From contig NC_015931.1 of the NCBI RefSeq assembly GCF_000223395.1, positions 1,770,001-1,802,000 on the forward strand: a stretch of 32,000 nt of DNA, given 5' to 3'. Below the pieces are notes generated by a model. The model saw only the letters and a program-made list of their open reading frames with translations, had not been told where the DNA came from and searched no databases. Below, one piece after another: positions 6,183-29,221 of this stretch; within the stretch, counting starts at the first letter, position 1; each line of letters opens with the position of its first letter. This stretch comes from Pyrolobus fumarii 1A. GTDB lineage: Archaea; Thermoproteota; Thermoprotei_A; Sulfolobales; Pyrodictiaceae. The translations under genes were made by a program, and so were the position numbers.

Positions 6183-7130
6183 CTAGCTGCGTGTGACTAT
6201 CCGCACACTCTCCTCTATCACTTCGCGCGCTCTTCTAGCCACGTTTGGGTCTACACGCACCTTTGGCTCCATCTTCTCCAGCGCATCCGCTATCGCTTGC
6301 AGCGTTATCTTCTTCATGTCTATACAGACCGCTATTGGGTTAAGGGGCTCTACGCGCACACCTGGGTTTAGCCTCCTCGCGCGGTAGACCAGACCCTCCT
6401 CTGTGCCGAGAAGGACGACACTCCTATCCCGGAATTTCGCAACCGCCCTTATCATCTGGCTCGTGCTGCCAACAAAGTCGGCCATTCTCCTCGACTCTCT
6501 CGGCGCCTCCGGGTGGACCAGTATCGCCGCCCGGTCGCCCCACTTCTCCCTAGCCTTGCGCACATAGTATGGCGAGATGAGAAACTCGTGTACTGGGCAA
6601 TGTCCGCGCGTCGGCACCGGCACCGTCTTCACACCGGTAACCTCCTCTACATACTCGGCAAGGTTCCTATCGGGACCGAACACTATCTTCTCTACACCCT
6701 CCCGGGCTAGTATCGATGCAAGCTTAGCCGCCGATGCGCTGGTAACCACGTAGTCGGCTTCAGCCTTAGCCCACAACGGCGAGTTAACATAGACGAGGAA
6801 TGGTGCCCCCGGATGCTCCTCACGAGCCCTAGCAACATCCTCCCGCGCCAGGCTATCAGCTAGAGGGCAGCCAGCTTCGGGCACCGGGTGCAACACTACA
6901 CGATCCGGGTTAAGGGCAGCCGCCATCTCAGCCATAAACCTCACACCAGCGAACACTATCACGTCGGCATCGGTCTCCATCGCCGCCCTTGCAAGCTCCA
7001 GACTATCACCGACCAAGTCAGCCACATCCTGGACCTCCGGAAGCTGATAATTGTGCGCGAGTATCACAGCCCTACGCTTCTCTTTCAACCTCGCTATCTT
7101 CTCGCGCAGCTCCTCAATGAACCCAGACAT
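6183..7130 (-). CDS. nadA: Quinolinate synthase A
   Basis: ILAHNYQLPEVQDVADLVGDSLELA, GVRFMAEMAA and AGCPLA are typical NadA motifs. The start was moved to ATG 7130 (MSGFIEELREKI...). The 38-codon upstream extension in the ORF track is W/C-rich and looks non-coding. Confidence 0.85.
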   Translation of the reverse strand: MSGFIEELREKIARLKEKRRAVILAHNYQLPEVQDVADLVGDSLELARAAMETDADVIVFAGVRFMAEMAAALNPDRVVLHPVPEAGCPLADSLAREDVARAREEHPGAPFLVYVNSPLWAKAEADYVVTSASAAKLASILAREGVEKIVFGPDRNLAEYVEEVTGVKTVPVPTRGHCPVHEFLISPYYVRKAREKWGDRAAILVHPEAPRESRRMADFVGSTSQMIRAVAKFRDRSVVLLGTEEGLVYRARRLNPGVRVEPLNPIAVCIDMKKITLQAIADALEKMEPKVRVDPNVARRAREVIEESVRIVTRS

Positions 7131-7283
7131 GACACACCCAGACCAGACAAACTCCGCACAACGATACCATGCTACAAGCGTAACTCTAGACCAGCAAGCC
7201 CATGGACCACACCAGCTTTTGACACCACCCCCAACACCAAGCAAGAGAGGAGAGTGCTGCCAACCAGCTATCCACCTGCCAGT

Positions 7284-7336
7284 TCAGCAGAATCACCCGA
7301 CAATACAAGACTCTCGGTTCGGCTCAACCTCATCAC
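7284..7336 (-). ncRNA. Weak candidate C/D box sRNA
   Basis: The minus strand reads GUGAUGA (7336-7330), then a 12-nt guide ggttgagccgaa, then CCGA (D'-like), then 26 nt, then CUGA (7287-7284). The total is 53 nt, and the flanks ctag/ctgg can form a short terminal stem. The C' box is poor. Confidence 0.2.
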
Positions 7337-7396
7337 TCTAGACTCGAAATGGTCTAAAGGCGAGGATTGAGGGGTGGAAGTTGAGGTAGAAAAGCT

Positions 7397-7876
7397 TCAG
7401 GAGGGGAAAGGCACGTAAACAACGCTTGGAGGATGTCCTATCTCATCATGTATTATTTTGCCGCCTAGATAGGTTATGTCTGGTGCTATCATCACCACTC
7501 TTTTACGAACCGGGTTTTTGACATAATTCTTGATCAGAACTTTAAGCGCTTGATACGTCTCTTCGCGGGAAAGCAGCAAGGTTATATGTGGAATAAAGAC
7601 GAGCACCAAGCCTTCAGGGTACACGTACTCGACAGCCTTAATCCTCTCTAAAATCCTGACAATAGTGATGTCATCCAAGCGTTTCATGATCATTGATGGT
7701 ATAGAGGGGTCTAACTCGCCATTATAGTCTATGTCTTCCAGCTCCGAATCCAAGAGATGTACGTACGTCATGACTAGATTCAACAAGTCCATTCCCATTT
7801 CGGCAATATCGAGGTTGATTAGAGGAACACCATACAACTTACTAATCTCCTTCATATCCTCCTTCACTGCGTGCAC
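7397..7876 (-). CDS. Hypothetical protein in an AT-rich islet
   Basis: 159-aa ORF with a GTG start. ATG 7855 is more likely because a minus-strand TATA-like gatatatga lies at about 7889-7897. I recognise no motif, and the codon composition is clearly more AT-rich than in neighbouring genes. Confidence 0.45.
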   Translation of the reverse strand: MHAVKEDMKEISKLYGVPLINLDIAEMGMDLLNLVMTYVHLLDSELEDIDYNGELDPSIPSMIMKRLDDITIVRILERIKAVEYVYPEGLVLVFIPHITLLLSREETYQALKVLIKNYVKNPVRKRVVMIAPDITYLGGKIIHDEIGHPPSVVYVPFPS

Positions 7877-8156
7877 AAGAGCCTCATATATCGAGCTTCT
7901 AGAGACTTTCTTAATGGCTTTTCTATACGCGGAAAGATGATGTTTATACCGCTTATACCTTCACCTCCAGTCCTTCTATTAGCTTCTAGCGTGTCTACTA
8001 ACCAGAGTTTTAGGTTCTTAACCTCCTCCATGCAGGGGCACCATGTAATGTATCTGCAACAATACTTTGTAAATCTTATGTGTAGTAGGTGCTACATTGT
8101 ATCACCATTTCGAGCTCATCGAAGGGGGTTTGCCTTCAAGCATAGAGCGCCTGCTT

Positions 8157-8396
8157 TTAACTGTGGTTATGCTTGTCTCTTCTGTTCTCGGCACTCTCGT
8201 AGACTGGTTCGAGTATGATCCTCCCTGTCTCCTCGTCGAGGTGCACCCGGTACGCGACTATCCTCAGCTTCTCTACAAGGTAGAGGGGGACGCGTACCTT
8301 CACGTAGCTCTCCCTGTACCTCCTGCCCCTCACCGTCTTCGTGGTGAGCGTGAGCTTCACGACCCTCTCCCGGCGCTCGGGCAACGCGCCCTCCAT
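8157..8396 (-). CDS. Small putative DNA-binding protein (AbrB/SpoVT-like swapped-hairpin pattern)
   Basis: 80 aa from ATG 8396: MEGALPERRERVVKLTLTTKTVRGRRYRESYVKVRVPLYLVEKLRIVAYRVHLDEETGRIILEPV. The VxVPxxLxExL...GxxV...G.IILxP pattern resembles AbrB/MazE-type proteins. A TATA-like tttaataa lies about 20 nt upstream on the minus strand. Confidence 0.4.
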   Translation of the reverse strand: MEGALPERRERVVKLTLTTKTVRGRRYRESYVKVRVPLYLVEKLRIVAYRVHLDEETGRIILEPVYESAENRRDKHNHS

Positions 8397-8398
8397 TG

Positions 8399-8444
8399 TA
8401 GCGTACGCTAGACGCTTATTAAACGCTATTGTGGCATACGCTAC
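8399..8444. promoter_or_regulatory. Divergent promoter with palindromic putative operator sites
   Basis: The 12-nt perfect palindrome TAGCGTACGCTA (8399-8410) and the related GCATACGCTA (8435-8444) flank the AT-rich TATA element cttattaaa (8414-8422). They lie between the divergent ORFs 8157-8396 (-) and 8429-8806 (+). Confidence 0.4.
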
Positions 8445-8806
8445 ACGGTGGCAGGGGCGTGGCCGGGGAGGAACGAGACAAGACACGGGTCTACCTCGAG
8501 CGCGTCAAGACCCTAGAGGAGAGGGCTAGGGTAGCCCTCGGCGCGGCGGCTGGGTTAGCTGGCGTGTTCTTCACCGCAGCGTCGCTTATCAGGAATCTCA
8601 GGCTTGTTATGGTTGCTGCAGCCGTATGGTCCGCGGCCACGCTCGTAACGGCATCCGCATATAGCTTCCTGGCTGCAGAGAGACTATGGGAGAGGCTAAT
8701 GCGAGACCCTGCCAAGGCCTACCCGCTGCTAGTCGCCCTCTTCGGTGCAGGCCTAGTAGCGATAGGCCTGGCCGCCCTGATAGCCACGATCATGGGCTGG
8801 TGGTGA
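8429..8806 (+). CDS. Hypothetical membrane protein (3 predicted TM helices)
   Basis: 125-aa ORF with a charged N-terminus followed by AAAGLAGVFFTAASL, VMVAAAVWSAATLVTASAYSFLAA and LLVALFGAGLVAIGLAALIATIMGWW. The start is uncertain (TTG 8429 or GTG 8459). Confidence 0.4.
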   Translation: MWHTLHGGRGVAGEERDKTRVYLERVKTLEERARVALGAAAGLAGVFFTAASLIRNLRLVMVAAAVWSAATLVTASAYSFLAAERLWERLMRDPAKAYPLLVALFGAGLVAIGLAALIATIMGWW

Positions 8807-8994
8807 ACGCTTCCCTGAGAGACCCGCAGAGCCCAAGATGGATCCTAGGCCTCATAGCGATAGTCGCGTGCTTCGGCGTAGCGGCGGTGGCGCTAGCCCT
8901 CCTAGGCCTATGGAAACGAAGATGTGGGCCCCAGCCTCGTAGGATATACGCATTCGCATTGATGTTGGACGTTGGCAGGGCGGGACACTCTTAG
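8800..8994 (+). CDS. Possible small single-pass membrane protein, translationally coupled to the upstream ORF
   Basis: The GTG at 8800 overlaps the TGA (8804-8806) of the upstream ORF. The product has 64 aa and one TM helix (WILGLIAIVACFGVAAVALALLGLW). Confidence 0.3.
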   Translation: MVNASLRDPQSPRWILGLIAIVACFGVAAVALALLGLWKRRCGPQPRRIYAFALMLDVGRAGHS

Positions 8995-9012
8995 AGGCCG
9001 GTTGACGGACTC

Positions 9013-9237
9013 CTATCTACCATCCTCGTCTGGAGGCAACCTGCTCTCTAGGAGCGCCTTGCGTGTCTCCCTGTCAACCTCCTCGCCCGCGAGCTTCTCG
9101 AGGGTCTCGAGTGCCTCCCTGCCTCGGCCCCTCTCCTCGGCGCCCGTCGCGAGGTAGAGTAGCGCCGAGAGCCTCCTCCGGTGTAGGGTGTAGCCGCGCA
9201 CCGTCTGCTCTACGCCTCCGATGCTCAACGCGGGCAT
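9013..9237 (-). CDS. Hypothetical small helical protein, possibly the second cistron of a two-ORF unit
   Basis: 74-aa Arg/Glu/Leu-rich ORF. Its ATG overlaps by 13 nt the stop of a 40-codon ORF (9225-9347, TTG start). That ORF sits 22 nt downstream of a minus-strand TATA (cctatatc, 9369-9376). Confidence 0.35.
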   Translation of the reverse strand: MPALSIGGVEQTVRGYTLHRRRLSALLYLATGAEERGRGREALETLEKLAGEEVDRETRKALLESRLPPDEDGR

Positions 9238-13772: not shown

Positions 13773-15077
13773 TTGGTGCGGTTTGAGCTTGACCCGCCGC
13801 CGCCCGGTATACTAGAGCGTAGCAATGATGAGATACTCGAGTTGTTCCTTGAGGCTCTTCGGGCGGCTGGCGCGAGTGAGAAGACTGTGAAGGCCTATAG
13901 GTCTGCTATCACCGACTTCCTCGAGTTTATCGGTGATAAGCCGCTTCGTGAGGTGACACAGGAGGATGTGCTGAGGTGGAGGGCTGAGAGGCTACGCAAT
14001 GGGTTCCCGAGGAAGAGGAGGAACCGCTCGAAGCGTCTCGACCCGTTTGAGGAGAGGAGGTTGAGGCAAGCCACTCTCCACTACTACACCCTCTTCCTCA
14101 GGGGCTTCTTCGAGTGGCTAGGGCTCCCGGTGAAGGTGCCGGTGGTCGCCAAGCCTCGTGGGCGCGAGGTAGAGGCTCTCACCGAGGAGGAGATACTCCG
14201 GCTATTGTCGGCGGCGAGGGATACCCTGGATATCCTCATACTCGCCTTGCTGCTGGAAACTGGTCTACGTGCACAAGAGGCTATCTCGCTCCGGTTGCGC
14301 GATATCGATCCCGTCCGTCGCGAGATCCGCGTGAGGAACGCGAAGTACGGCGAGGAGCGCACGGTCTTCTATGGCGACTTGACTGCAGCGGCGCTAGCCA
14401 AGTGGCTGGAGGAGAACCCTCACCTGGGCCCCGACGACCCTCTGCTCGGCATAAGCTACTCCGGGCTGTATAAGAGGCTCAAGAGTCTCGCTAGGAGGGC
14501 TGGCATAGACCCAGAGAAGGTTAGGCCACACGTCCTGCGCCACACGTTCGCTACAGAGGCGTTGAAGAGGGGCATGAGCCTACCGGCAGTGCAGAGGCTG
14601 CTAGGCCACAAGGACATCAAGACCACGCAGATCTACTTGCACTTACTCCGCGAGGACATCAGAGACCAGTACATGAGGGCGTTTACAAACCAGTGGGTAC
14701 AGCAGCCGCCCGCAACGCCACCGGCGCCAGCCGTACAAGCCGCGTGGCCTCCATGGCAGCAACCAGTGCAACAACCGTATCCCCAGCAGATACAGCCGGT
14801 GCCACAAGCACAACAACTCGGACCATATCCGCCGCCACAATACTATCAACAACCGCAATGGCAACAGTGGAGCCAGCAACCACCTAGCCCGCAGCAGCAT
14901 CACCAGTGGCCGGCCTACCCTCAACCACAGACACAGCAACAGCAGCAGCTACAACAGCCCGCACCAGTACCCCAGATGCAGCCATTCATACAGCAACAGG
15001 CGCCGGTACAGCTGGGCATGCCCTGGCCGCATCCTAGGCGAGAGGCCTCCACCCAAACGGGCGAGGCCCAGACATGA
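13773..15077 (+). CDS. xerA: Tyrosine recombinase, XerA/XerCD-like, with a long Gln/Pro-rich C-terminal extension
   Basis: The N-terminal SAM-like core-binding domain carries KTVKAYRSAITDFLEF. The catalytic domain carries LLLETGLRAQEAISL (Arg), HVLRHTFAT (HxxR) and LLGHKDIKTTQIYLHL (His/Tyr). Residues ~306-434 are Q/P/W/Y low complexity. Confidence 0.85.
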   Translation: MVRFELDPPPPGILERSNDEILELFLEALRAAGASEKTVKAYRSAITDFLEFIGDKPLREVTQEDVLRWRAERLRNGFPRKRRNRSKRLDPFEERRLRQATLHYYTLFLRGFFEWLGLPVKVPVVAKPRGREVEALTEEEILRLLSAARDTLDILILALLLETGLRAQEAISLRLRDIDPVRREIRVRNAKYGEERTVFYGDLTAAALAKWLEENPHLGPDDPLLGISYSGLYKRLKSLARRAGIDPEKVRPHVLRHTFATEALKRGMSLPAVQRLLGHKDIKTTQIYLHLLREDIRDQYMRAFTNQWVQQPPATPPAPAVQAAWPPWQQPVQQPYPQQIQPVPQAQQLGPYPPPQYYQQPQWQQWSQQPPSPQQHHQWPAYPQPQTQQQQQLQQPAPVPQMQPFIQQQAPVQLGMPWPHPRREASTQTGEAQT

Positions 15078-15210: not shown

Positions 15211-15879
15211 GTGTCGTTTGTGAGAATCGCGTGTGTAACTGGCCTACGCTACCCTGAGGTTGTCGACGATAGGGGGCTCGATATACTCACCACCATGCTA
15301 CGTGATCGTGGTGTGGGGCTTATCCTGCTTCTTGGCGATGTGATAGCCCGGCCGGAGCTGGGGCTCCTAGAGTATGTCGTGAGCGAGATTGTTGAGCGTG
15401 TCGAGGCTGGTGTCGCCGTTGTTCCTGGTTCCTGTGAGGCCAGTGTACCGGGCGGCGAGCTGCGCTCAAGCTGGGATGTGCTTCGTGAGGTTAGCCTTGT
15501 CGTTCGGAGGGCGGGTGGCCATCCTCTTCACGAGGAGCCCATGGTGACGGATGGTGTTGGTGTGCTGGGCGTCCCGGTGCTGCTAGGGGGCGGGTGCAAC
15601 GGGGGCGTCGAGTCGTGGGGTTTGCCTAGAGATCTTCTCGAAGAGATATGGGCTGGGAGGCTACTAAGACACTACAAGCTGCTCCTTGAGGAGTATGCGC
15701 CTCGTAGACTAGTTGTTGCGGTCTATGAGTCTCGCAGGAGTCTCGAGTCTCTCGTGAGGCTTGCTGCAGTGTCGCTAGCCGCTCTTGACAGTAGGGTTGC
15801 AGCTATAGTGTCGAATGTTGGCGGAGAGGGTGTCATGGAGTGTGGGGAGGCTCTCCACCCCCTCATACTAGACGCGTAG
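15211..15879 (+). CDS. Hypothetical protein with a degenerate metallophosphoesterase-like pattern
   Basis: VRIACVTGLRYPE...GLILLLGDV...VAVVPGSCE mimics the DxH...GD...GNH(D/E) order of calcineurin-like phosphoesterases, but most metal ligands are replaced. This is a weak call. Confidence 0.35.
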   Translation: MSFVRIACVTGLRYPEVVDDRGLDILTTMLRDRGVGLILLLGDVIARPELGLLEYVVSEIVERVEAGVAVVPGSCEASVPGGELRSSWDVLREVSLVVRRAGGHPLHEEPMVTDGVGVLGVPVLLGGGCNGGVESWGLPRDLLEEIWAGRLLRHYKLLLEEYAPRRLVVAVYESRRSLESLVRLAAVSLAALDSRVAAIVSNVGGEGVMECGEALHPLILDA

Positions 15880-15908
15880 AGCTAGGCGTGTGCAACGCCG
15901 CTATCGAC

Positions 15909-16355
15909 CTATGACCTTCTTCTCGCTGCACGAGGTGCAACACCGTGATGCTCCTCCGCGAGCCTTTCTAGCCTCTTGTGGTAGGGTGACTGGAGTCCCA
16001 GGAAGATGCCGCCTCTCTTGCCGCCTAGGAAGCCAATGCAAGACTCTCCCACTGAGAGCACGTGTAACGTCGGGTCACTCGATTCTATGACTAGGCGCCA
16101 TTCGCCACCCTCGGGGACTACTATGATGCCGCGAGGAGCCCCTACGACCCTCACGTAGATGCCTCGCCCTGCACCCCCCACGAGGTCCTCTAGGCGAGGC
16201 GCTTCTACGTCTAGGTGCGTGACCCTGGCACGGCTCCAGCCCCGCACGTGTATATACACCGCCGCGTCTAGCTCCCTGCACGAACCGTTATCGCAGAGCT
16301 GTAAACGCGCCTCTACGCGTATCTTGCCGGGGCCCGGCCCCGTCAACAATAACAA
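15909..16355 (-). CDS. Hypothetical beta-rich protein
   Basis: 148-aa ORF, divergent from csx1 and convergent with the upstream ORF. I recognise no motif. Confidence 0.4.
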   Translation of the reverse strand: MLLLTGPGPGKIRVEARLQLCDNGSCRELDAAVYIHVRGWSRARVTHLDVEAPRLEDLVGGAGRGIYVRVVGAPRGIIVVPEGGEWRLVIESSDPTLHVLSVGESCIGFLGGKRGGIFLGLQSPYHKRLERLAEEHHGVAPRAARRRS

Positions 16356-16440
16356 CCTCTCTGTCTATCGCGCCACGCTCTAGCCGTGATGCACACGCAG
16401 TATATCGGTGTTGTGGGTGTCGAAACGACCCCGCCTCCGG

Positions 16441-16448
16441 TTTATACC
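16441..16448 (+). promoter_or_regulatory. TATA box for csx1
   Basis: TTTATACC lies 35-42 nt upstream of the in-frame TTG at 16483. It sits inside the ORF-track N-terminal extension that starts at 16408. Confidence 0.45.
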
Positions 16449-16482
16449 TAGCCTCTTGCCTAGCAATACTGGTCCTCTGGTC

Positions 16483-17973
16483 TTGCCGGCTCCGACCATA
16501 GTAGCTGGTGTATGGGGCTACCCGGGGGCTTGGCGCCCAGCCGAGTACGTGTTTACGAGTAAGGATGCGAGCATAGCCAGGGTGGCGAAGTCCTCCCTCG
16601 AACCCTTAGTAGAGTTCTACAATCCGGAACACGTGGTAATCTTCATCGCTGATACTGTGGCTCCGCGGGAGGCGCTCAGAGAGGCTAGGAGCTACAGCGA
16701 TGTGCTCGAGGCTGTGGTTAGATGGCTCTACGGGTGGTTGAGGGACAACACGGATGCTATTAGGGAGAGGCTATCGAGGCTATCTGTTGAGGTTGTACCC
16801 AATGTCGGCTTCTACCAGGAGTGTGAGTGGAAGTTTGCTGAAGGTGCATCACCTCTAGACGCTTTCCGTGCACTAACACTCCGTGTTCTCTACGAGAAGC
16901 TCGTGGATGTTGCTCTCGAGGCTCCAGTTGTGAGGCTCGTGCTAGACCTCACCCATGGCATCAACTATATGCCCGTGTTGGCTAGAGAGGCTGCGCTCCA
17001 CGCCGCCATCGCCGCCAGTCTGACGACTGGTTCGACTGTCGAGCTTGTACTCGTTAATAGCGAGCCTTACCCCGTCGGCTGGAGTAGCGACAAGCCACCT
17101 CGCCTCGAGGTACACGTGTTGGGCATTGAGAGGGTTGATGCGGGGTATGCGGCTCTACGCGCATCCATCGACCTCGTGAAGACCGTGCTGCGCAACGGTA
17201 ATGTCCGTGTGAAGCTCGCGTCTGCGCCTGGCAAGCTGGCCCCCGTGCTAGGCACGACGCTCAACACACCCGCAAGGATGCTAGTCGAGAGGGATGGTAT
17301 CCCGGCCGCGGTTGTAACCCTCTACGGGCTACCACTCGCAGCTGCATACCTTGCGGTCGACTCGGAACTAGACGTAGATAACGCCATGGAGCTCTACAAG
17401 ACCGCCATTGACTACTTCCGGGGGTACACCAGGCTAGAGAGGCAGCCGTGCCGTGTGTTCCACGAGGTGGGTCTGGATTATGCCGGGCTCCGTAGTCTAC
17501 TCTACGCGGCTAGCCTCGTCCGCCACGTCAAGAGGGCCTACGCGGGAGCCCTAAGCGACGACACCGTCTGCTGTAACCTCGAGACATTAGAGGACCGCGG
17601 CGTCTACATTGACGAGTTGTCAGAGATAGCCGGTAGACTAGCCACACCATACCGCACAATAGTGGGAACCGAGCTACACAAGATAGAGGAGACTATACGA
17701 GCTGTTGCAAAGTGCAGATGCGGGGGAGGCGATGGACCCCGTTGCGAAAAGCCCGAGGCGCTACACTTCCCCATCTACTGTGACGACTGGCCGGGCGAGA
17801 AGTGCAAAGAGCAGATAGACCTGCGTAACCTCCTTGCACACGCCGGGCTAGAGTACAACGCGATAGAGGCTACGATAGACGAGTCGGGAATAGCGCTCCG
17901 CTACCGCGAGGGCTGCTGGGAGATAGTGAAGAAGCTGCTCAAGACAACCGCCAGGATGCTAGCAGAGGGTTGA
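16483..17973 (+). CDS. csx1: CRISPR-associated Csx1-family protein (CARF domain plus HEPN RNase domain)
   Basis: The DxTHG signature LDLTHGINYMP is present, as is the C-terminal HEPN Rx4H motif DLRNLLAHAGLEYNAIE, very like Pyrococcus Csx1 (FDSTHGLNY, PRNVLAHAGLE). The N-terminus IVAGVWGYPGAWRPAEYVF matches the CARF start. The ORF track extends it to GTG 16408. Confidence 0.8.
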   Translation: MPAPTIVAGVWGYPGAWRPAEYVFTSKDASIARVAKSSLEPLVEFYNPEHVVIFIADTVAPREALREARSYSDVLEAVVRWLYGWLRDNTDAIRERLSRLSVEVVPNVGFYQECEWKFAEGASPLDAFRALTLRVLYEKLVDVALEAPVVRLVLDLTHGINYMPVLAREAALHAAIAASLTTGSTVELVLVNSEPYPVGWSSDKPPRLEVHVLGIERVDAGYAALRASIDLVKTVLRNGNVRVKLASAPGKLAPVLGTTLNTPARMLVERDGIPAAVVTLYGLPLAAAYLAVDSELDVDNAMELYKTAIDYFRGYTRLERQPCRVFHEVGLDYAGLRSLLYAASLVRHVKRAYAGALSDDTVCCNLETLEDRGVYIDELSEIAGRLATPYRTIVGTELHKIEETIRAVAKCRCGGGDGPRCEKPEALHFPIYCDDWPGEKCKEQIDLRNLLAHAGLEYNAIEATIDESGIALRYREGCWEIVKKLLKTTARMLAEG

Positions 17974-18237: not shown

Positions 18238-19311
18238 TTGAAACAGATCATTAGAGAGTTGAAGAAGTGGAAGGCGCCAGCGACGGTACTCCTCAGCCTG
18301 TACATCCCGCCCGGCAGGCCCGTGAGCGACGTGATGTCGCTACTGCGCCAGGAGTACTCTATCACGGATAACATCAAGTTGAAGAGGACACGTGACGCAG
18401 TTCAGCGCGCACTAGCATCCGCCATGGAGAGACTGTCGAAGGTAACGAAGGTGCCAGAGAACGGTCTTGTCATCTTCTGCGGCGAGGATATGAATACCGG
18501 CGACTTCATCTGCCTTATGTTCTCGCCGCCGGAGCCAGTGCCAGTCTTCTTCTACCGTACCGACAAGTGGTTCCACACCGAGTTCCTCGAGGAGATGCTC
18601 GAGCACGAGACAGCCTATGGCCTCATTATAGTAGAGAGAGACCAGGCTACAATCGGCCTCCTGAAGGGCACTAGGATCCAGGTGCTGGAGGAGCTTGAGG
18701 GCTTCGTGCCAGGCAAGCACCACAAGGGCGGACAGAGCCAGAGGCGTTTCGATAGGCTGATCGAGCAGGCTGTAGACGAGTTCTTCAAGGAGGTGGCTGA
18801 GGCAGCAGCCAAACACTTCCTGCCGTTGATAGAGAAGGGTATACTCAAGGCGATTATCGTCGGCGGGCCGGGCTACGCCAAGAAGGACTTTGTCGAGAGC
18901 GGTTACCTCGACTACAGGATACGCCAGAAGATAGTAGGGCAGCTCTTCGATGTGGCGTATCAGGGTGAGGCTGGGCTCCGCGAGCTCGTGATGAAGGCAG
19001 AGAATGTGATCAAAGAGCAGCAGTACATCGACCTCGTGAAGGCCCTCGAGGAGTTCAAGTACCACCTGGCGAAGGATGACGGCCTTGCGGTTTACGGCGA
19101 GAAGGAGGTTAAGAACGCGCTTCAGATGGGCGCTCTCAAGTTCCTGCTGGTCGACGAGAATAGGGAGGATGCCGATGCGTGGGCAGAGGAGGCTAAGAAG
19201 TACGGCACCAAGGTCTACTTCCTACCCGACGACTTCCCCGAGGCAGAGTGGGTCAAGAAGACGTTCGGCGGTCTCGTGGGCGTCCTACGCTACAAGCTGA
19301 ACTGGTACTAG
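18238..19311 (+). CDS. prf1: Peptide chain release factor aRF1
   Basis: [11 protein letters not shown], the GGQ motif ([14 protein letters not shown]) and the three-domain length all fit. The TTG start is the first start codon after the in-frame stop at 18193-18195. The NIKS position reads NIKL and the YxCxxxF position reads YRTDKWF. Confidence 0.9.
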
Positions 19312-20252: not shown

Positions 20253-22109
20253 GTGCCGGCCACCGTGCAGTCTGGCTGTAGGGCCCCCGGCTGCTCTAGA
20301 CCCTCCACGCTTCTCCTCTCCGCAGTGACAGCCTCTATGCTCTTGTTGCTCTTGGCGTTGGTTGCACACGCGCACGCCGTGGTCTGGTACGATCGCGTCG
20401 ACTTCTGGCTTCTCTATGGCGCCGAGAACGTTACCGTTGCCATCGTTGACCCGGATTATGGGCCTCTCGGGTCGCCCTGGGAGGCCTGGATGCTAGAGAC
20501 TCTACGCGAGCGTATCAAGCTCGTATGCGCCTATATCAACGTCGGGTTTGCCGAGGAGTGGAGGTGGTACTGGGAGAGGCTGGTAGAGGAGAAGCCAAGC
20601 TGGCTGACTAGCGTCGAGTACCCCGAGTGGCCCGGAGAGTACTTCGTCGCGTACTGGTCTAGCGCCGCGTGGAAGCCAGGAGGCTGGGTTGACATCATAA
20701 CCGAGTATGTGAGGCGCGTTGTTAGGCAGGGCTTCAACTGTATACTGTTGGATAACGTCGATGTCTACAACTACTGGGTTTCGCCCGAGGAGTATGGCCT
20801 CCCTCTGCCACGCATAGAGAACGCGACTAGGATGATGGCACTACTCGTACAAGTCGTCGCGAATTACGCTCATGCGTTGAACGCTAGTGTCTTGATAAAC
20901 GTTGGTTCGGGTCTAGAGCTGCTCGAGAACGACACGTTAGTCTCGCTGATAGATGGAGTTATGCGCGAGGATGTGTTCGTGTGTAACGGTGAGCCCTGCG
21001 ACCCGAACGAGACGGAGACCGTCGTGGAGCTTCTCGAGCGTGTCGCGAGTAGAGGGAAGCTGGTGATAATACTCGACTATGTCGACGACGAGGCTGACGA
21101 GTTGCTCGTGCTGCGTGAGGCTGGGAAGCACGGTTTCGAGGCCATAGCCTCGTACTCGCTCAACCTTGACGAGCTACCGCCCTACATACGAGGCTACTAT
21201 GGCGTCTGCAAGACCAGCGCGGTCTTCGCGGCCGCCGTGAGAGTGAGAGGCGCGAGCAGGCTGTGGCTCATGCCCGGCGGCGCTGCAAGCCTGCACGGCG
21301 AGGCGATGCTACCCACGTGCAGCGGCGCAACCATTGCATACACGCTGTTCAACGGCACGTCCTACCGCGTCGTCATGGATGGCATGATGCTGGATGATTC
21401 TTTCTCCGCTGTACTCGCCAGCAACGATACACTAGTCTATCTGAACACGAGCGACTCTACACTACGCGTCGCAGGCCGGGACAGGATACTCGCTAAAGCC
21501 TACGCCTACGCACCACTCCGCAGCGTAACATGCAGCTCCACAACACTCATACTCTTCATGACGAACAACTCGACACTCGCAATAGCCGCGATCAACTCGT
21601 CAAGTCTGAGAGTACTGTGCCTCGCGAGCAACGTCTACCCCGGGAGATACGCCGCAATATGCACCAAGGACCGTATCTACATCCTCGCCTCGGACGCTAG
21701 AGAAGCCAAACTCTACCAGGCCTACAAAGACAACTGCACCGAGATCGCCAGCGGCCTGCCGCCAGCACAGCCACTCCCAAGCATCGCAAAGTGGAGCAAC
21801 GCGATCGCCTACACTAGCACCAAGGGCCTGGCACTCGTGAACACCCGCAACACCCTACTGCTACCGCTACACCTCGACTCCATGAGGAGCATACTGGCAA
21901 GCCAACTGGCACGCTACTATACGGTCACAATAATAGACGGAAACGTGACCATAATAGACCCGCCCATACAGCCCCCCACGCCCATCCACAACACAAAGCC
22001 GAACTACCCCACACAAGCCATAATCACAATAACACTAACAGCGCCGATACTCGCCACACTCGCCATACACGCCACGCGAGCAACTCGAAACGCCACGAAC
22101 ACAGCCTAA
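20253..22109 (+). CDS. Secreted, membrane-anchored GH114-like (endo-alpha-1,4-polygalactosaminidase / TM1410-like) TIM-barrel protein with a glycosylated beta-rich stalk
   Basis: A signal peptide (MLLLLLALVAHAHA) is followed by LVCAYINVGFAEEWRWYW, WPGEYFVAYW and GFNCILLDNVDVYNYW, which match the GH114 motif order. The C-terminal half is Ser/Thr/Asn-rich with about 14 N-x-S/T sequons. A Pro-rich linker and a C-terminal TM helix (AIITITLTAPILATLAIHA) end the protein. Confidence 0.6.
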   Translation: MPATVQSGCRAPGCSRPSTLLLSAVTASMLLLLLALVAHAHAVVWYDRVDFWLLYGAENVTVAIVDPDYGPLGSPWEAWMLETLRERIKLVCAYINVGFAEEWRWYWERLVEEKPSWLTSVEYPEWPGEYFVAYWSSAAWKPGGWVDIITEYVRRVVRQGFNCILLDNVDVYNYWVSPEEYGLPLPRIENATRMMALLVQVVANYAHALNASVLINVGSGLELLENDTLVSLIDGVMREDVFVCNGEPCDPNETETVVELLERVASRGKLVIILDYVDDEADELLVLREAGKHGFEAIASYSLNLDELPPYIRGYYGVCKTSAVFAAAVRVRGASRLWLMPGGAASLHGEAMLPTCSGATIAYTLFNGTSYRVVMDGMMLDDSFSAVLASNDTLVYLNTSDSTLRVAGRDRILAKAYAYAPLRSVTCSSTTLILFMTNNSTLAIAAINSSSLRVLCLASNVYPGRYAAICTKDRIYILASDAREAKLYQAYKDNCTEIASGLPPAQPLPSIAKWSNAIAYTSTKGLALVNTRNTLLLPLHLDSMRSILASQLARYYTVTIIDGNVTIIDPPIQPPTPIHNTKPNYPTQAIITITLTAPILATLAIHATRATRNATNTA

Positions 22110-22238
22110 CGCCGCATAACAAATTGCAACGCTCAACAGACACCACACAACCTTTTAATCAAAGGATGTGACGTGAGCACTCACTCGAAGAGAAAGCTTA
22201 AACCCCTGGTTCCATGGGACGCGATGAGTTGGAGAACT

Positions 22239-22326
22239 GCGGGGGTGCCCGAGCCAGGTCAAAGGGGGCGGGCTGAGGACCCGCTGGCGTAGGCCTGCGT
22301 GGGTTCAAATCCCACCCCCCGCACCA
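22239..22326 (+). tRNA. tRNA-Leu (anticodon GAG), CCA encoded
   Basis: The acceptor stem GCGGGGG/CCCCCGC, the anticodon stem GCGGG/CCCGC with loop CU-GAG-GA, a long variable arm, and the T arm GTGGG-TTCAAAT-CCCAC are present. The discriminator is A, followed by CCA. Confidence 0.9.
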
Positions 22327-22508
22327 CTTCACTTGTCCTCGCTATTGTCCCAAAATTCCGTCCGCATAACCGTTCTAACAGCACTACTAGCATTGCCAGA
22401 GTGTTAAGGATGTTTAATCAACTATTATTAATTCGTTATATACTTTTCTGAACGGTAGCTATCAACAAGCTAGAAGACTATAGACTTCTGCCGACGTTCG
22501 GTGTCACA

Positions 22509-22904
22509 ATGTCGAAGACGTTGCTCTTACCTGATGAGAGGTTACAATATAAGACTCGCATAGGCTCAACAGAGATCTACGTGACTGATAGACGTTTTGA
22601 CAGTAGTGAGCGGCGCAGAGACCTATGATGTACTCTTGACTCACATCGGTGTCGTCACTATAAAGGAAAAAGGGACATGCTCCTGCTTGGCGCCATACTA
22701 CTATTTCTTGGCATTCCATTCTTGTCATACGGTGGCGTCATACTCTTGCTAGCAGGACTAGCCCTAGCATGGTACGGGTGGAAGAACAGGTACATCCTTG
22801 AGATAACAGCAGGTTCAAAGAAGTTTAGCACACGCAACGGTGAAAGAGTGCACGAGATAGCAGCTCGCTTACGTGGCTTCGTCATGCAAGTGAAGCAAAG
22901 CTAA
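22509..22904 (+). pseudogene. Interrupted ORF (in-frame TGA at 22626-22628) or two small ORFs (39 aa plus a 75-aa two-TM protein)
   Basis: ATG 22509 lies about 27 nt after a TATA-like ctataga. The N-terminal part reads MSKTLLLPDERLQYKTRIGSTEIYVTDRRF... The same frame continues after the TGA into the ORF-track ORF at 22677-22904 (LLLGAILLFLGIPFLSYGGVILLLAGLALAWYGW...). It lies in a very AT-rich islet next to the tRNA. Confidence 0.3.
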
Positions 22905-23111
22905 AGCACAGCAGATATACTTGACAAACCGCAAAATAAGGCTTTACCAAGTTGTTTTAAAAATCCGCACTTTAAACTCTAAGATTCTATGCTTGTGTGT
23001 TAGAGCAGCTGAACGACTTTATGCACTACCTACACTTCGAATGCCTCCGTTTTGTACGAGCGTCTATACAGACTCACATGGATAGAAAACTGGAAACAGA
23101 AAGGTGAATTA

Positions 23112-27119: not shown

Positions 27120-27809
27120 TTGAGGGCGCTGATGGTCCAGGAGGGTTTCGGCGACCTGAGGGCTGGTGTAGAGAGGCGCGTGGGTGGCTGCAACCTACGC
27201 ATGTACCGCGATGGTGGCTTCAATGTGTATGAGAGGGAGTGTGGTGGAGACATCCGCCGGGTTAGGGTTGCGGGTGACAAGCTTGAGGTTGTACCGGCGC
27301 CACCGGTAATGGCTGAGCCGCGCGTCTCCAATATCATCATGCTCCGGTTGCCAGAGCCTCTTGTAGTGTCGCCGGGTAGTGAGGCGAGCATAGAGACGAG
27401 CATACCCGTTGATATCGTTGTGGTGATGGGCTCGCTGGTGGTAGATGCTATACCGACATACCGCGTGAAGTACGCGTTGTATGGTAATGTGGACAAGGGC
27501 GTAATAACAAGGTTCGTTAAGCTTGGCGAGTGTAGAGCACCGTGCGCCTCTATGCGTATAGTCGTGCGCAATAGTGGAGGTAAGCCTGTGAGGATAGAGC
27601 GTATCGTCTTTCCTGCTTACATGTTAAGCCTCTGCTACAATGGTAGCCTCGTCTACGCTAACAGCATATTCGTCAACGCGGTTGATGACGTGGGGTCTGT
27701 TCAGCCTGGAAGGTTAGAGGCGCAGGAGTGTAGACTCGCCCCGCAGCTTTTGCGCGCACCAATATTCGAGAGGCAGAGGCAGAAGTTCTTGATGCTCTAC
27801 GGGTTCTAG
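27120..27809 (+). CDS. Hypothetical beta-rich protein
   Basis: 229-aa ORF with a TTG start only 6 nt from the divergent start at 27113. A TATA-like aaatacc at 27077-27083 lies inside the divergent gene. I recognise no catalytic motif. Confidence 0.5.
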   Translation: MRALMVQEGFGDLRAGVERRVGGCNLRMYRDGGFNVYERECGGDIRRVRVAGDKLEVVPAPPVMAEPRVSNIIMLRLPEPLVVSPGSEASIETSIPVDIVVVMGSLVVDAIPTYRVKYALYGNVDKGVITRFVKLGECRAPCASMRIVVRNSGGKPVRIERIVFPAYMLSLCYNGSLVYANSIFVNAVDDVGSVQPGRLEAQECRLAPQLLRAPIFERQRQKFLMLYGF

Positions 27810-27910
27810 CGTACTACCGTTTCATATGCTTCGAGTGGCTCCGGCCACGCAAATATGGTAATACATGCCCATCCCGAGCATACCGGGTCTCCCCGCCACG
27901 GTGGTACCTG

Positions 27911-29221
27911 TTGAAGGGCGACTGGTTCATTGACGCGTATGCTGCCGTGATAGACCGGCTGCTAAGCGAGCTGAGAAACGAGGAGCGGCAAGTGCCGGAG
28001 GTACCGACGGACTGGTGGGTTGCTAGGCTCCCCGAGCCTTCGAGCGATTCGCCACCTCTCGCGGCCATCGATGGCGGCGGCGGGTTTGAGCCTCTCGTCG
28101 GAGGCTCTGCCCTGTACATTGCGCGTGCGATGGCCGTGTTCAACCCGCCTGGCGATCCTGTGAAAGTCGTTGACGTTAAGCTTGTGCCGGCGCGCGACAC
28201 GAGGATACTAGACGCGCTACGGTCTATAGTTGAGCACCGGGCGGCACTCCGCGCTCTAGAGAGGCTGCCGCGCGACGAGGCCACGATTCTAATGGATGGT
28301 AGTTACCGTGCTGTGGTCTCCGCGGCGCTCTCGTCTATTAGGAGGGCCGCCTACGGGCATGTTAGCCTGGCTTCGCTCTACACGGGCCTCGCGAGTCTCG
28401 AATTGCTAGTGGTGCTCTCTAAGCTGTTCCAGGTTGCACTTGAGCATGGCGTTAGAATAGCATATGTCTCGAAAGACTCTGGCTATCGTAGCTTCAAGGA
28501 GGCTGTTCTCCTCGACCTGCTATCAAAGGAGGCAGAGAGGCTCAACCTACTCGACCTTAGCGTGTTGGCCGAGAGGGGGGCGAGGAGCTACCCTCTAGGT
28601 AGGATACGCGAGGAGCTCCTCGCATGGCGTAAGCGTGTACCCCCGCGTCTACAATCACTGATAGACATGATACTGGACATAGGGTACCGGGATACACTCT
28701 TCATAGACGATTTCGTTGGAGCCGCTGTTGGCCACACGCTCGCACTCGAACTTGCTCTTGGTGGCCTCTACGGCTCGGATATCGAGAAGAGTGTCGACAA
28801 ACTATGTGACCGCGTGGATGAGTACATTGGGGGGCGTGAGGCTGAGAATTGTAGAGGGCTTCGGGACGACGCTGTGAGGGCATACCAGATGCTCCCAGCT
28901 GCACGCATGATGTATGTTAGACTCGCGCCGGGCGACGATCTGCTGCTAGTCGAGACGCCAGGCTCCTCTAGGCTTGCAAGCGAGGGTAGAAGCCTAGAGC
29001 CTCTCAACGACGATGAAGAGGAAGTGTTGCGCGTACTCGTGGCCGGGTATGCTGGGCCACGCTTCTACAACCGCTGGCTCGTCGCGGCGCACGAGGCCGC
29101 AACAATGAGGGGCGAGCACCTAGCGCTATACGCGAAGCTGCTTGATAGCCTGGCACGTGCACGCGGCGTGAGGCTCAGGCTTGCTCGTAGGGTTAGCGTG
29201 GGGGTGACAGGCATTGTCTGA
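27911..29221 (+). CDS. nurA: NurA-domain 5'-3' nuclease-like protein
   Basis: The NurA motif order is present: LAAIDGGGGFE...YIARAMAV (catalytic Asp region), ATILMDGSY and RIAYVSKDSGYRSF. Length is 436 aa, and the stop overlaps the start of the downstream HerA-like gene. Confidence 0.7.
   Translation: MKGDWFIDAYAAVIDRLLSELRNEERQVPEVPTDWWVARLPEPSSDSPPLAAIDGGGGFEPLVGGSALYIARAMAVFNPPGDPVKVVDVKLVPARDTRILDALRSIVEHRAALRALERLPRDEATILMDGSYRAVVSAALSSIRRAAYGHVSLASLYTGLASLELLVVLSKLFQVALEHGVRIAYVSKDSGYRSFKEAVLLDLLSKEAERLNLLDLSVLAERGARSYPLGRIREELLAWRKRVPPRLQSLIDMILDIGYRDTLFIDDFVGAAVGHTLALELALGGLYGSDIEKSVDKLCDRVDEYIGGREAENCRGLRDDAVRAYQMLPAARMMYVRLAPGDDLLLVETPGSSRLASEGRSLEPLNDDEEEVLRVLVAGYAGPRFYNRWLVAAHEAATMRGEHLALYAKLLDSLARARGVRLRLARRVSVGVTGIV

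Follow-up and report, generated by a model that had tools for sequence, protein, structure and literature searches.

A csx1 gene set among housekeeping genes of Pyrolobus fumarii: an intact CARF–HEPN protein, most likely a remote type III accessory, with a cysteine-rich loop before its HEPN motif

What is the role of a csx1-like gene that lies among housekeeping genes in Pyrolobus fumarii, a deep-sea archaeon that is among the most heat-tolerant organisms known? A preliminary description of the 32-kb window (the whole stretch of DNA that was analysed) had noted the lack of any repeat-spacer array or cas, csm or cmr genes around it, and had suggested that its product either serves a distant type III locus in trans or is an orphan ribonuclease that senses cyclic oligoadenylate (cOA) or another nucleotide. 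It had also proposed that a cluster of cysteines close to the HEPN motif might be a metal site specific to this lineage.

On the + strand, to which all the csx1 features given here belong, an uninterrupted open reading frame (ORF) extends from a GTG codon at 16408 to 17973 and could specify 521 amino acids, on which our residue numbers (e.g. D180, H478) are counted. This is the ORF originally described, and it exists at full length, but translation probably starts further in, at TTG 16483, to give a coding sequence of 496 codons (16483..17973), because the GenBank record for P. fumarii 1A holds exactly this 496-aa product (AEM39771.1, by inference Pyrfu_1918), the N-termini of homologues align at this codon, and residues 1–26 of the long ORF are disordered in the AlphaFold (AF2) model (pLDDT about 30). 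Two further starts have been annotated, GTG 16417 (RefSeq, 518 aa) and TTG 16456 (505 aa, P0001), although no exact record of the 505-aa form was found. Eight proteins of the window match P. fumarii 1A entries exactly. The in-frame upstream extension (16408..16482) is probably untranslated, and a TATA-box-like element read within it (TTTATA, 16441..16446, about 37 nt upstream of TTG 16483) suggests that csx1 may have its own promoter and a short leader; the gene for aRF1, at a distance of 264 nt, has its own TTATATA. The deposited name of AEM39771.1 is "DxTHG motif CRISPR-associated protein", so csx1 is already annotated, yet uncharacterised.

The gene product is an intact, full-length CARF–HEPN Csx1, ordinary for its family. 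This identity had been deduced from the DxTHG and HEPN motifs, and Pfam, TIGR, PADLOC and AlphaFold/Foldseek results all agree with it, chance being no plausible source of such matches; the strings then quoted are all present, namely LDLTHGINYMP (D180–N186), RNLLAHAGLE (R473–H478) and the cysteine-rich CRCGGGDGPRCEKPEALHFPIYCDDWPGEKC (C436–C466). The Rossmann-like CARF sensor domain (residues 31–220, 16498..17067) is matched by Pfam Csx1_CARF (PF22230, E=5.4e-36, with the whole 163-position model covered), by Foldseek and by profile comparisons with Csx1 of Pyrococcus furiosus (PfuCsx1, PF1127; PDB 4eog), which is the best PDB match by sequence and profile (phmmer 2.5e-11; subfamily profile 2e-51 over the CARF domain), and with Csm6 of Thermococcus onnurineus (ToCsm6; 3e-40). 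The DxTHG domain model TIGR02549 gives 31.6 bits against a cutoff of 21, the Csx1 equivalog TIGR01897 (cas_MJ1666) is a marginal pass (111.0 bits against 110), and the score for Csx1_HEPN (PF09455), 23.0 bits, is exactly its cutoff. Despite this threshold score we accept the HEPN domain, because the PADLOC match to Csx1/Csm6 CARF+HEPN is full-length (E=4e-47 across residues 32–512) and the motif aligns with R376 and H381 of ToCsm6; together with a helical linker, this effector domain occupies residues 277–520 (17236..17967), as judged from AF2 secondary structure, PADLOC and Foldseek comparison with ToCsm6. Structure modelling had been recommended in the preliminary description, and the AlphaFold monomer model, confident throughout (pLDDT 89, pTM 0.89), has the Csm6 fold: it superposes on ToCsm6 with a TM score of 0.80 normalised to the target (Foldseek E=2e-23), PfuCsx1 and SsoCsx1 being among the other matches. 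The protein is predicted to be a dimer-type CARF–HEPN ribonuclease of the Csx1/Csm6 (CARF9-like) group; both CARF9 and Csx1 models of PADLOC match it (down to 4e-47), and the label 'CARF9' is taken solely from those model names.

Although ToCsm6 (PDB 6o6s, 6o6t, 6o6x, 6o6z), the best structural match, is only about 19% identical to Pyrolobus Csx1 and about 60 residues shorter, the two share the order CARF, helical linker, HEPN, as well as WGxxxxW...Y, DxTHGxN and R-N-x-x-A-H motifs, the W14/H132/N135 triad and E337. Residue-by-residue alignments of the WGxPxxWxxxxY motif (W36, W42 and Y47; 16513..16548) place W42 in the column of ToCsm6 W14, a ring-nuclease and cA4-stacking residue (PMC6754442), and Y47 in that of Y19; W42 is kept in 133 of the 153 representatives, chosen from 678 HMMER hits, on which our conservation columns are based. 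The DxTHGxN motif (D180, T182, H183, G184, N186; 16945..16965), located by TIGR02549 and the alignments, is near-invariant among these representatives, and its H183 and N186 correspond to H132 and N135. E422 (17671..17673), invariant in the subfamily, aligns with E337, which together with W14 was mutated in the cA4-bound W14A/E337A crystal form (PDB 6o6x). In the HEPN catalytic motif R473-N474-L-L-A-H478 (R-X4-H; 17824..17841; Pfam and alignments), H478 corresponds to H381, the H381A chain (6o6z) having Ala in exactly that column, and the Arg and His are found in 143 and 145 of the 153 representatives, respectively. Judged by these alignments, every cA4-binding, ring-nuclease and HEPN catalytic residue is retained in Pyrolobus Csx1, with no sign of the loss of CARF ligand residues or of the HEPN Arg/His that the preliminary description would have taken to indicate decay. 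The W14/H132/N135 combination (here W42, H183 and N186) is the rule within the subfamily, and is found in only about 5% of Csx1 proteins (PMC6754442).

Other characterised proteins are less close. PfuCsx1 is likewise a Csx1-family protein of an archaeal hyperthermophile, partnering with type III-B (as we propose below for the Pyrolobus protein), but its HEPN half aligns solely around RNxxAH, its overall superposition is poorer (TM 0.59–0.65), and it has no cysteine-rich loop aligned to that of Pyrolobus. The cA4-activated crenarchaeal proteins SsoCsx1 (2i71) and SisCsx1 (6qzt, 6r7b series) share the DxTHGxN motif in their CARF domains, but their structural similarity is weak (TM 0.54–0.73 for 2i71 and 0.26–0.29 for 6qzt). 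Furthermore, SisCsx1 has Tyr at the position of W14, where Pyrolobus has Trp, and does not cleave cA4, separate ring nucleases being needed; it also forms hexamers via a helical insertion that is absent from Pyrolobus Csx1.

With which type III system might such a protein operate? Neither an array of direct repeats nor a tandem repeat nor a CRISPR RNA family was found in the 32-kb window, and none of its approximately 30 larger ORFs gave a cas, csm or cmr family match. The absence reported in the preliminary description therefore holds, and now extends to 51 kb in total: the left flank (9.8 kb) and the right flank (9.4 kb) contain housekeeping genes only, with no cas genes or arrays, and the repeat of the P. 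fumarii CRISPR arrays is absent from window and flanks alike. Thus, in the 51 kb examined, csx1 has no type III cas operon or array around it or next to it, and a type III locus just outside the window, which would have made it an ordinary accessory gene, does not occur within 9–10 kb on either side.

For the presence and position of arrays and of a III-B module elsewhere in the genome we draw on the literature. A 2025 survey lists seven CRISPR arrays at 388,807–502,240 in NC_015931.1 (PMC12195208, Table 1, Table S1), together with I-A, III-B and I-A cas modules at 0.39–0.50 Mb; just three cas genes are reported for the III-B module, and the cyclase integrity of Cas10 is unstated there (PMC12195208). 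The original P. fumarii genome paper gives 'CRISPR repeats 0', a homologue of the CRISPR-repeat-binding protein Cbp2 has been reported in the organism, and our literature search turned up nothing devoted to Cas10 or Cmr of P. fumarii. Estimated from locus-tag numbering, csx1 is roughly 0.5 Mb from the cas region, whereas for ToCsm6 an association with type III-A (Csm) is implied by the name only. It is known, and common, for CARF genes to lie apart from cas loci (PMC4012209). As the survey reports both a III-B module and arrays in this genome, an orphan is not needed to explain the gene: csx1 is most likely a remote type III accessory, so that of the two possibilities originally raised, the first, in which the protein serves a distant type III locus in trans, is to be preferred. 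Elsewhere in the window, tRNA-Leu was the sole RNA gene found in a low-GC stretch at 21.9–23.5 kb, and a hidden RNA gene considered there was discarded.

The cysteine-rich loop (17713..17805) directly precedes the HEPN motif, and contains C436, C438, C446 and C458 (a clade-specific quartet) and C466 (in WPxxxC); it is modelled by AF2 as short beta strands (pLDDT 85–89). ToCsm6 also has a loop before the HEPN Arg, but the Pyrolobus loop is about 10 residues longer and has five cysteines, complemented by C503, whereas that of ToCsm6 has none. C503 (17914..17916; the 'GCW' in '...YREGCW') is an addition to the preliminary description, being the sixth conserved cysteine of the same system (the protein has 10 in total). 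It is nearly invariant in a 31-sequence subfamily alignment, and co-varies with C466 (65 sequences have both, 47 neither and 30 one only; Fisher p=5e-12, phylogeny uncorrected). The quartet, C436-x-C438-x7-C446-x11-C458, is invariant in the alignment of a five-member clade. As for the conservation of the insert, which the earlier account had left to alignment, the six-cysteine version is limited to about eight sequences, and extends a four-cysteine pattern that the ~25 closest representatives of the subfamily share.

How might these cysteines be used? In the subfamily they are gained and lost two at a time (Ca/Cb, Cc/Cd) and the upstream counts are mostly even, and since cysteines appear and disappear in pairs, disulfides fit better than one metal site. 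Disulfides are abundant, indeed the norm, in crenarchaeal cytosolic proteins (PMC3177088), and a precedent for cysteine staples in HEPN is provided by SisCsx1, in which a conserved disulfide (C361–C380) positions the HEPN insertion (PMC6754442). From their pattern, the cysteines look like heat-stabilising disulfide staples rather than evidence of a new function. The lineage-specific metal site proposed earlier is thus borne out only in part, by the restricted distribution of the six-cysteine form, and not by the shared four-cysteine base or the pairwise gain and loss. The loop might nevertheless bind zinc structurally, as Zn(Cys)4, or serve as a sensor of redox state or metal, and in this way regulate the adjacent HEPN site: the quartet is an invariant, self-contained unit near a CxC motif and survives in P0003, which lacks both C466 and C503, and the loop is among the best-conserved parts of a clade that has lost the catalytic motifs (see below). 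Set against the lack of CxxC knuckles in the loop and the evidence for pairing, we regard this as possible, though distinctly the less probable use of the cysteines. The count is odd in P0002 and P0010, whose seventh cysteine is a clean fit to neither a disulfide nor a metal model.

The relatives of Pyrolobus Csx1 raise a different kind of question. Searching further with a 31-sequence profile added nothing to the 678 HMMER hits, and scans of a genome collection and of metagenomes gave one MAG locus and two fragments only. In uncultured Desulfurococcales, csx1 occurs at the same housekeeping position: it adjoins aRF1 in L002 and L011, is one gene from the TFB-Gar1-Bmp block in L007 and is beside aIF2-beta in L004, while even P0008, at 29% identity, has genes for NurA, DUF432 and MscS in its vicinity. 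Gene orientation and flanks vary between these genomes, and nine of the 10 relative loci inspected lack cas neighbours. On the other hand, P0007, a more distant member, is beside Cas_APE2256, Csa3, Csa5 and a DevR/Cas7-family gene, from which we conclude that the subfamily belongs to the CRISPR world. Intact homologues are constrained (P0002 versus P0010: dN 0.20, dS 1.7), and between the window and L002 the dS of csx1 (1.76) exceeds that of its neighbour, the aRF1 gene (0.75), more than twofold, which hints at replacement of the csx1 allele. In a sister clade (P0004, P0005 and P0006) the CARF Trp motif, DxTHG and the HEPN Arg/His are all missing, yet the Csm6 fold is kept and purifying selection is strong (dN/dS 0.07; 0.04–0.10 along the whole length). 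The loss of motifs that the preliminary description would have read as decay thus occurs in this clade, and selection in spite of it implies that the scaffold is of some use beyond cOA-activated RNase activity. Our literature search found no description of a Csx1 derivative that lacks the motifs and is under purifying selection.

It is therefore necessary to consider whether Pyrolobus Csx1 itself might have become emancipated, its gene long retained at a housekeeping position beside aRF1, TFB or aIF2-beta, and be a CRISPR-independent RNase or a factor in RNA or translation surveillance that responds to a different nucleotide signal or needs no signal. The retention of the neighbourhood in related genomes, the scarcity of cas neighbours and the sister clade could all be read in this way, but archaeal genomes are so dense in translation genes that such neighbours are expected by chance, orientation and flanks are inconstant, and cas-unlinked CARF genes are commonplace; with the cA4-binding and catalytic residues intact and near-invariant in the family, and a III-B module reported in the host genome, continued cOA signalling is the simplest assumption, and we consider emancipation unlikely. 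Given the loss of motifs in the sister clade, the lineage may conceivably be drifting away from cOA signalling. A more elaborate version of this idea, for which we hold out rather little hope, is that the Pyrolobus lineage is part-way through domestication, inherited vertically and fixed beside aRF1/TFB, its conserved core being the cysteine-stapled HEPN periphery and not the cOA-RNase chemistry, and that the process has been completed in P0004–6. If so, P0004–6 would hold a new CRISPR-independent role, for example in RNA or ribosome binding, or as a regulator or decoy of an active paralogue, and the window protein might carry a second, non-canonical function on its cysteine-stapled HEPN module.

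Two further explanations seem to us very improbable. The isolation of csx1 from cas genes, the borderline Csx1_HEPN and TIGR01897 scores (the latter just 1 bit over cutoff) and the motif-less close relatives might be taken to mean that csx1 is left over from a former type III locus and is decaying or without function; this is hard to reconcile with an uninterrupted ORF that yields a confident model and has all its catalytic and ligand residues, with the constraint on intact homologues, or with the low dN/dS maintained even by the motif-less relatives. Equally little can be said for csx1 as the cargo of an integrated mobile element or defence island. A tyrosine recombinase gene does lie 1.3 kb upstream (13773–15077), two ORFs between it and csx1 (15211–15879 and 15909–16355) have no Pfam, NCBIfam or PADLOC match, and the dS of csx1 is high compared with aRF1, but the supposed integrase is XerA, a chromosomal enzyme and not one of a mobile element (it scores 227 bits with the NCBIfam equivalog NF040815, whose cutoff is 220), and on this account the idea was rejected. 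Moreover, the surroundings of csx1 show nothing unusual in GC content, no direct repeats flank it, every other neighbour is a housekeeping gene, and the csx1–aRF1 adjacency is common to other genomes. The two ORFs were also set aside as candidates for csx1-linked genes, having neither database matches nor counterparts in related loci.

We therefore favour, as probably correct overall, a cA4-activated, self-limiting, cysteine-stapled Csx1 that operates in trans to the remote III-B module. To the family membership, the fold, the conservation of functional residues and the lack of cas genes over 51 kb, all observed directly, this explanation adds activation in trans, cA4 as the ligand, self-limitation and disulfides, which we infer. 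In this scheme, cA4 would diffuse to a CARF pocket formed by W42, Y47, T182, H183, G184 and N186, and its binding would allosterically switch on the HEPN site (R473, N474, H478) to bring about non-specific RNA degradation. Because the rare ToCsm6 combination of W14, H132 and N135 is retained, the CARF domain would probably also cleave cA4 and so switch itself off. As many as three disulfide staples could be formed by the loop cysteines and C503; a possible alternative is a single disulfide together with a Zn(Cys)4 site. Such links would make the periphery of the HEPN domain more rigid in an organism growing above 100 °C.

For the window gene itself this changes little: it is an annotated csx1 far from cas genes, whose isolation illustrates the known point that diffusible cOA allows type III effectors to be encoded anywhere in a genome. 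The heat tolerance of its host, the ring-nuclease residues of ToCsm6 type and the cysteine-stapled loop by the HEPN motif make it a candidate for an extremely thermostable, self-limiting cA4-activated RNase, of potential value in diagnostics and in studies of HEPN stabilisation, while the motif-less Csx1 derivative at the same chromosomal site would offer a tractable case of the exaptation of a defence protein.

A single long ORF occupies positions 16408-17973 (+). The preliminary description had taken its product for a Csx1 protein on the strength of its DxTHG and HEPN motifs. All three peptide strings that it quoted are present, and the identity is borne out by Pfam, NCBIfam and PADLOC. The Pfam Csx1_CARF model is covered in full (E=5.4e-36), Csx1_HEPN scores 23 bits, equal to its curated threshold, and the NCBIfam Csx1 equivalog TIGR01897 is matched with a one-bit margin (111 bits vs a cut-off of 110). 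The NCBIfam DxTHG domain model, the PADLOC CARF+HEPN 'Csx1/Csm6' model (residues 32-512, E=4e-47) and a series of PADLOC 'CARF9--CARF_HEPN' models also match. An AlphaFold2 model built from an alignment of only eight sequences is confident (pLDDT 89, pTM 0.89), and superposes best on Thermococcus onnurineus Csm6 (ToCsm6; E=2e-23, target-normalised TM 0.80), with P. furiosus Csx1 (4eog) and S. solfataricus Csx1 (2i71) among the further best PDB matches. The gene is an already annotated, intact, uncharacterised member of a known family, entered in GenBank as AEM39771.1 ('DxTHG motif CRISPR-associated protein', 496 aa) and in RefSeq as WP_167827929.1 ('TM1812 family CRISPR-associated protein'). 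Its start is most likely the TTG at 16483, because residues 1-26 of the long ORF are disordered in the model, aligned homologues begin about eight residues ahead of the 'AGVWGYP' strand, and the GenBank product has 496 residues. TTTATA at 16441-16446 (+) is a plausible TATA box.

Exhaustive HMMER searching gave 678 representative clusters at E<=1e-3 (59 of them at <=1e-30). When the best 153 of these 678 are aligned, nine motif positions are near-invariant (numbered from the GTG of the long ORF): W36 (131/153), W42 (133/153), D180 (149/153), T/S182 (147/153), H183 (144/153), G184 (150/153), N186 (147/153), R473 (143/153) and H478 (145/153). The window protein keeps them all, so the loss of CARF or HEPN residues that would have marked a decayed gene is not seen here. 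Residue-by-residue alignments equate W42, Y47, H183 and N186 of the CARF domain with W14, Y19, H132 and N135 of ToCsm6, and E422, R473 and H478 of the C-terminal half with E337, R376 and H381; the H381A chain of ToCsm6 (6o6z) has its Ala exactly in the H478 column. ToCsm6 cleaves cA4 in its CARF domain with W14, H132 and N135, and W and H occur together in no more than about 5% of Csx1 proteins (Molina et al., 2019); within the subfamily of the window protein it is the norm. From the conservation of these ToCsm6-type residues, we predict a cA4-activated, self-limiting HEPN RNase.

The Cys-rich segment ahead of the HEPN motif is real, though modest (about 10 extra residues), and ToCsm6 has an equivalent loop before the HEPN Arg that, unlike that of the window protein, is free of cysteines. 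The preliminary description had suggested a metal site specific to this lineage, which fits less well with an alignment targeted at the last 110 residues: four cysteines are conserved in the nearest subfamily (about P0007-P0028 of the homologue representatives), namely two upstream residues (Ca and Cb), Cc in WPxxxC (C466 of the window protein) and Cd in the 'CW' after LRYR (C503), which is nearly invariant in a 31-sequence alignment. These come and go in pairs. Cc and Cd are both absent from P0003, Ca/Cb are absent and Cc/Cd kept in P0024, P0027 and P0030-P0044, and P0022 is without all four. Across 142 sequences, 65 have both Cc and Cd, 47 neither and 30 a single one (Fisher p=5e-12, uncorrected for phylogeny), and upstream cysteines are mostly even in number (0/2/4 in 58/28/12 sequences vs 1/3/5 in 35/7/2). 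Given this pairwise gain and loss, the mostly even numbers, a cytosol that in crenarchaea is rich in disulfides, and the precedent of a conserved disulfide within the HEPN insertion of Sulfolobus SisCsx1, the loop probably carries disulfide staples, and these would not be unique to the Pyrolobus lineage. In the clade of the window protein (about eight sequences) the upstream cysteines number four, C436, C438, C446 and C458, and are invariant in the clade alignment; with C466 and C503 they bring the loop system to six of the ten cysteines in the protein, and this clade-specific quartet could possibly be a Zn(Cys)4 site instead. The insertion is an elaboration of a subfamily feature and seems not to be a new functional module.

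No cas, csm or cmr gene was found among the roughly 30 larger window ORFs scanned, and no direct-repeat array or tandem repeat in the 32 kb, in agreement with the preliminary description. The scan assigned an ABC-2 permease, isopropylmalate/isocitrate dehydrogenase, aIF2-beta, PCNA, NadA, DUF364, MscS, an M16 peptidase, a phosphoribosyltransferase, XerA, aRF1, an SFM1-like methyltransferase, a GH114 glycosidase, a nitroreductase, a MetE-like protein, DUF432, NurA, HerA and an amino-acid permease fused to a nucleotidyltransferase domain; window ORFs of no known family had no PADLOC match, and tRNA-Leu was the sole Rfam match. For a P. fumarii read set there are two assemblies that agree with the window at 100% identity over the shared stretches and extend it by 9.8 kb (left) and 9.4 kb (right). 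Both flanks hold only housekeeping genes (aconitase, L35Ae, SpoU, PHP, radical SAM; Pcc1, MoaC, Orc1/Cdc6, enolase, TrkA) and lack the P. fumarii CRISPR repeat, so that there is no type III locus just outside and 51 kb around csx1 are free of cas genes.

Several other features of this region deserve mention. NurA and HerA are adjacent (27120-31352), with no gene between them and DUF432 preceding; Mre11/Rad50 had no match among the scanned ORFs. The NCBIfam equivalog that identifies the chromosomal XerA recombinase covers residues 24-300 of its ORF (13773-15077, +), and the C-terminal tail of about 130 residues (about 14670-15077) is nearly all Gln, Pro and Trp in QQPxxPQ repeats, which to us seems unusual for a hyperthermophile enzyme. 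In the ORF at 1310-2968 (-), the permease (residues 24-411) is followed by a minimal nucleotidyltransferase (NTP_transf_2 / Pol-beta), and an independent gene call in locus L017 has both domains in a single 537-aa product. Two patches are low in GC against about 58% for the window: 7001-9200 (46.8%), a cluster of small ORFs without database match, and 22001-23100 (47.9%), about 1 kb, mainly non-coding and adjoining tRNA-Leu(GAG), where a permissive Rfam scan (21.9-23.5 kb) found nothing besides the tRNA. An Orc1/Cdc6 gene (L016:12398-13654), about 4.6 kb beyond the right end, indicates that the region may be near a replication origin.

Does csx1, then, serve a distant type III locus in trans, or is it an orphan? 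Eight window proteins are identical in sequence to entries of P. fumarii 1A (DSM 11204). This strain has a single chromosome of 1,843,267 bp, on which csx1 should be about Pyrfu_1918 of 2,038 genes, near 1.73 Mb, since AEM39751.1 is Pyrfu_1898. The 2011 genome note tabulates 'CRISPR repeats 0', which appears to be wrong, as NC_015931.1 has seven arrays according to a 2025 survey (PMC12195208), all of them within 388,807-502,240, with a 25-nt repeat and up to 79 spacers, along with cas modules of 4, 3 and 8 genes typed I-A / III-B / I-A. A homologue of the CRISPR-repeat-binding protein Cbp2 is also present in P. fumarii. Every CARF family has members unlinked to CRISPR-cas loci (Makarova et al., 2014), and among the relatives P0011, P0014 and P0030 have no cas neighbours; P0007, a positive control, adjoins Cas_APE2256, Csa3, Csa5 and a DevR/Cas7-family gene. 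With a III-B module and arrays reported and 51 kb free of cas genes, the simplest reading, favoured over an orphan, is that csx1 is a remote accessory of the reported type III-B system, about 0.5 Mb off by gene numbering, an arrangement that would be workable because the Csx1 activator is a diffusible small molecule.

Close relatives are few (eight clusters among 5.8 billion proteins in a word-seeded search, to which contig collections add one MAG locus and two fragments), all from hydrothermal Desulfurococcales-type assemblies. P0002 and P0010, with intact motifs, lie one gene from a TFB-Gar1-Bmp-ABC block, P0004 and P0005 lie between aRF1 and the same block, and P0003 adjoins aIF2-beta and phosphoribosyltransferase genes, both also in the window. 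From these resemblances, csx1 is a long-term chromosomal resident and not a recently scattered cas gene. As in the window, the distant P0008 (29% identity) has NurA, DUF432 and MscS (L006:5039-6403 and 15654-17240) no more than about 6 kb away, which points to a deeply conserved wider neighbourhood. Genes flanking P0014 (36% identity; L014:9052-13879) encode a Ser/Thr protein kinase with a weak FHA-domain match, a PP2C phosphatase and, separately, an FHA-domain protein, so that this CARF-HEPN protein may stand in a setting of phospho-signalling. Synteny with related MAGs is broken at one spot, between XerA and csx1, where the ORFs 15211-15879 (+) and 15909-16355 (-) have neither Pfam, NCBIfam or PADLOC matches nor a counterpart in any related locus. 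Compared with L002, the P0004 locus, csx1 is inverted relative to aRF1 and evolves much faster than its neighbours (49% identity for Csx1, 96.6% for aRF1), and dS is more than twofold higher in csx1 (16483-17973; 1.76) than in aRF1 (18238-19311; 0.75). Replacement of the allele, which is typical of defence genes, or recombination at a fixed site could explain the difference, and so could constraint on the codons of aRF1.

In the sister clade of the window protein, P0004 (L002:10001-11326), P0005 (L011:2817-4142) and P0006, the N-terminal strand bearing the two Trp is missing, DxTHG is replaced by DVAQGEP or IHDAGVD, NSEPYP is gone, and E, E and T stand in place of the HEPN Arg, Asn and His. 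Of the best 153 of the 678 representatives, only these three have lost both the CARF and HEPN motif sets. The Cys loop and C-terminal hairpin are almost unchanged, and the Csm6 fold is kept: P0004 is modelled with pLDDT 90 and TM 0.70-0.72 on ToCsm6 (6o6s). Between P0004 and P0005, dN/dS is 0.068 (0.04-0.10 in each gene quarter), comparable with 0.064 for RNase HII and 0.070 for Gar1 on the same contigs. These are a maintained Csx1 derivative without sensor and catalytic motifs, at an orthologous position, and they look like an exapted Csx1.

The observation of a Csx1 apart from any cas locus is thus confirmed and its initial interpretation partly supported. Its more notable sides are the extreme thermophily, the self-limiting residues of the ToCsm6 type and the apparently exapted sister clade.
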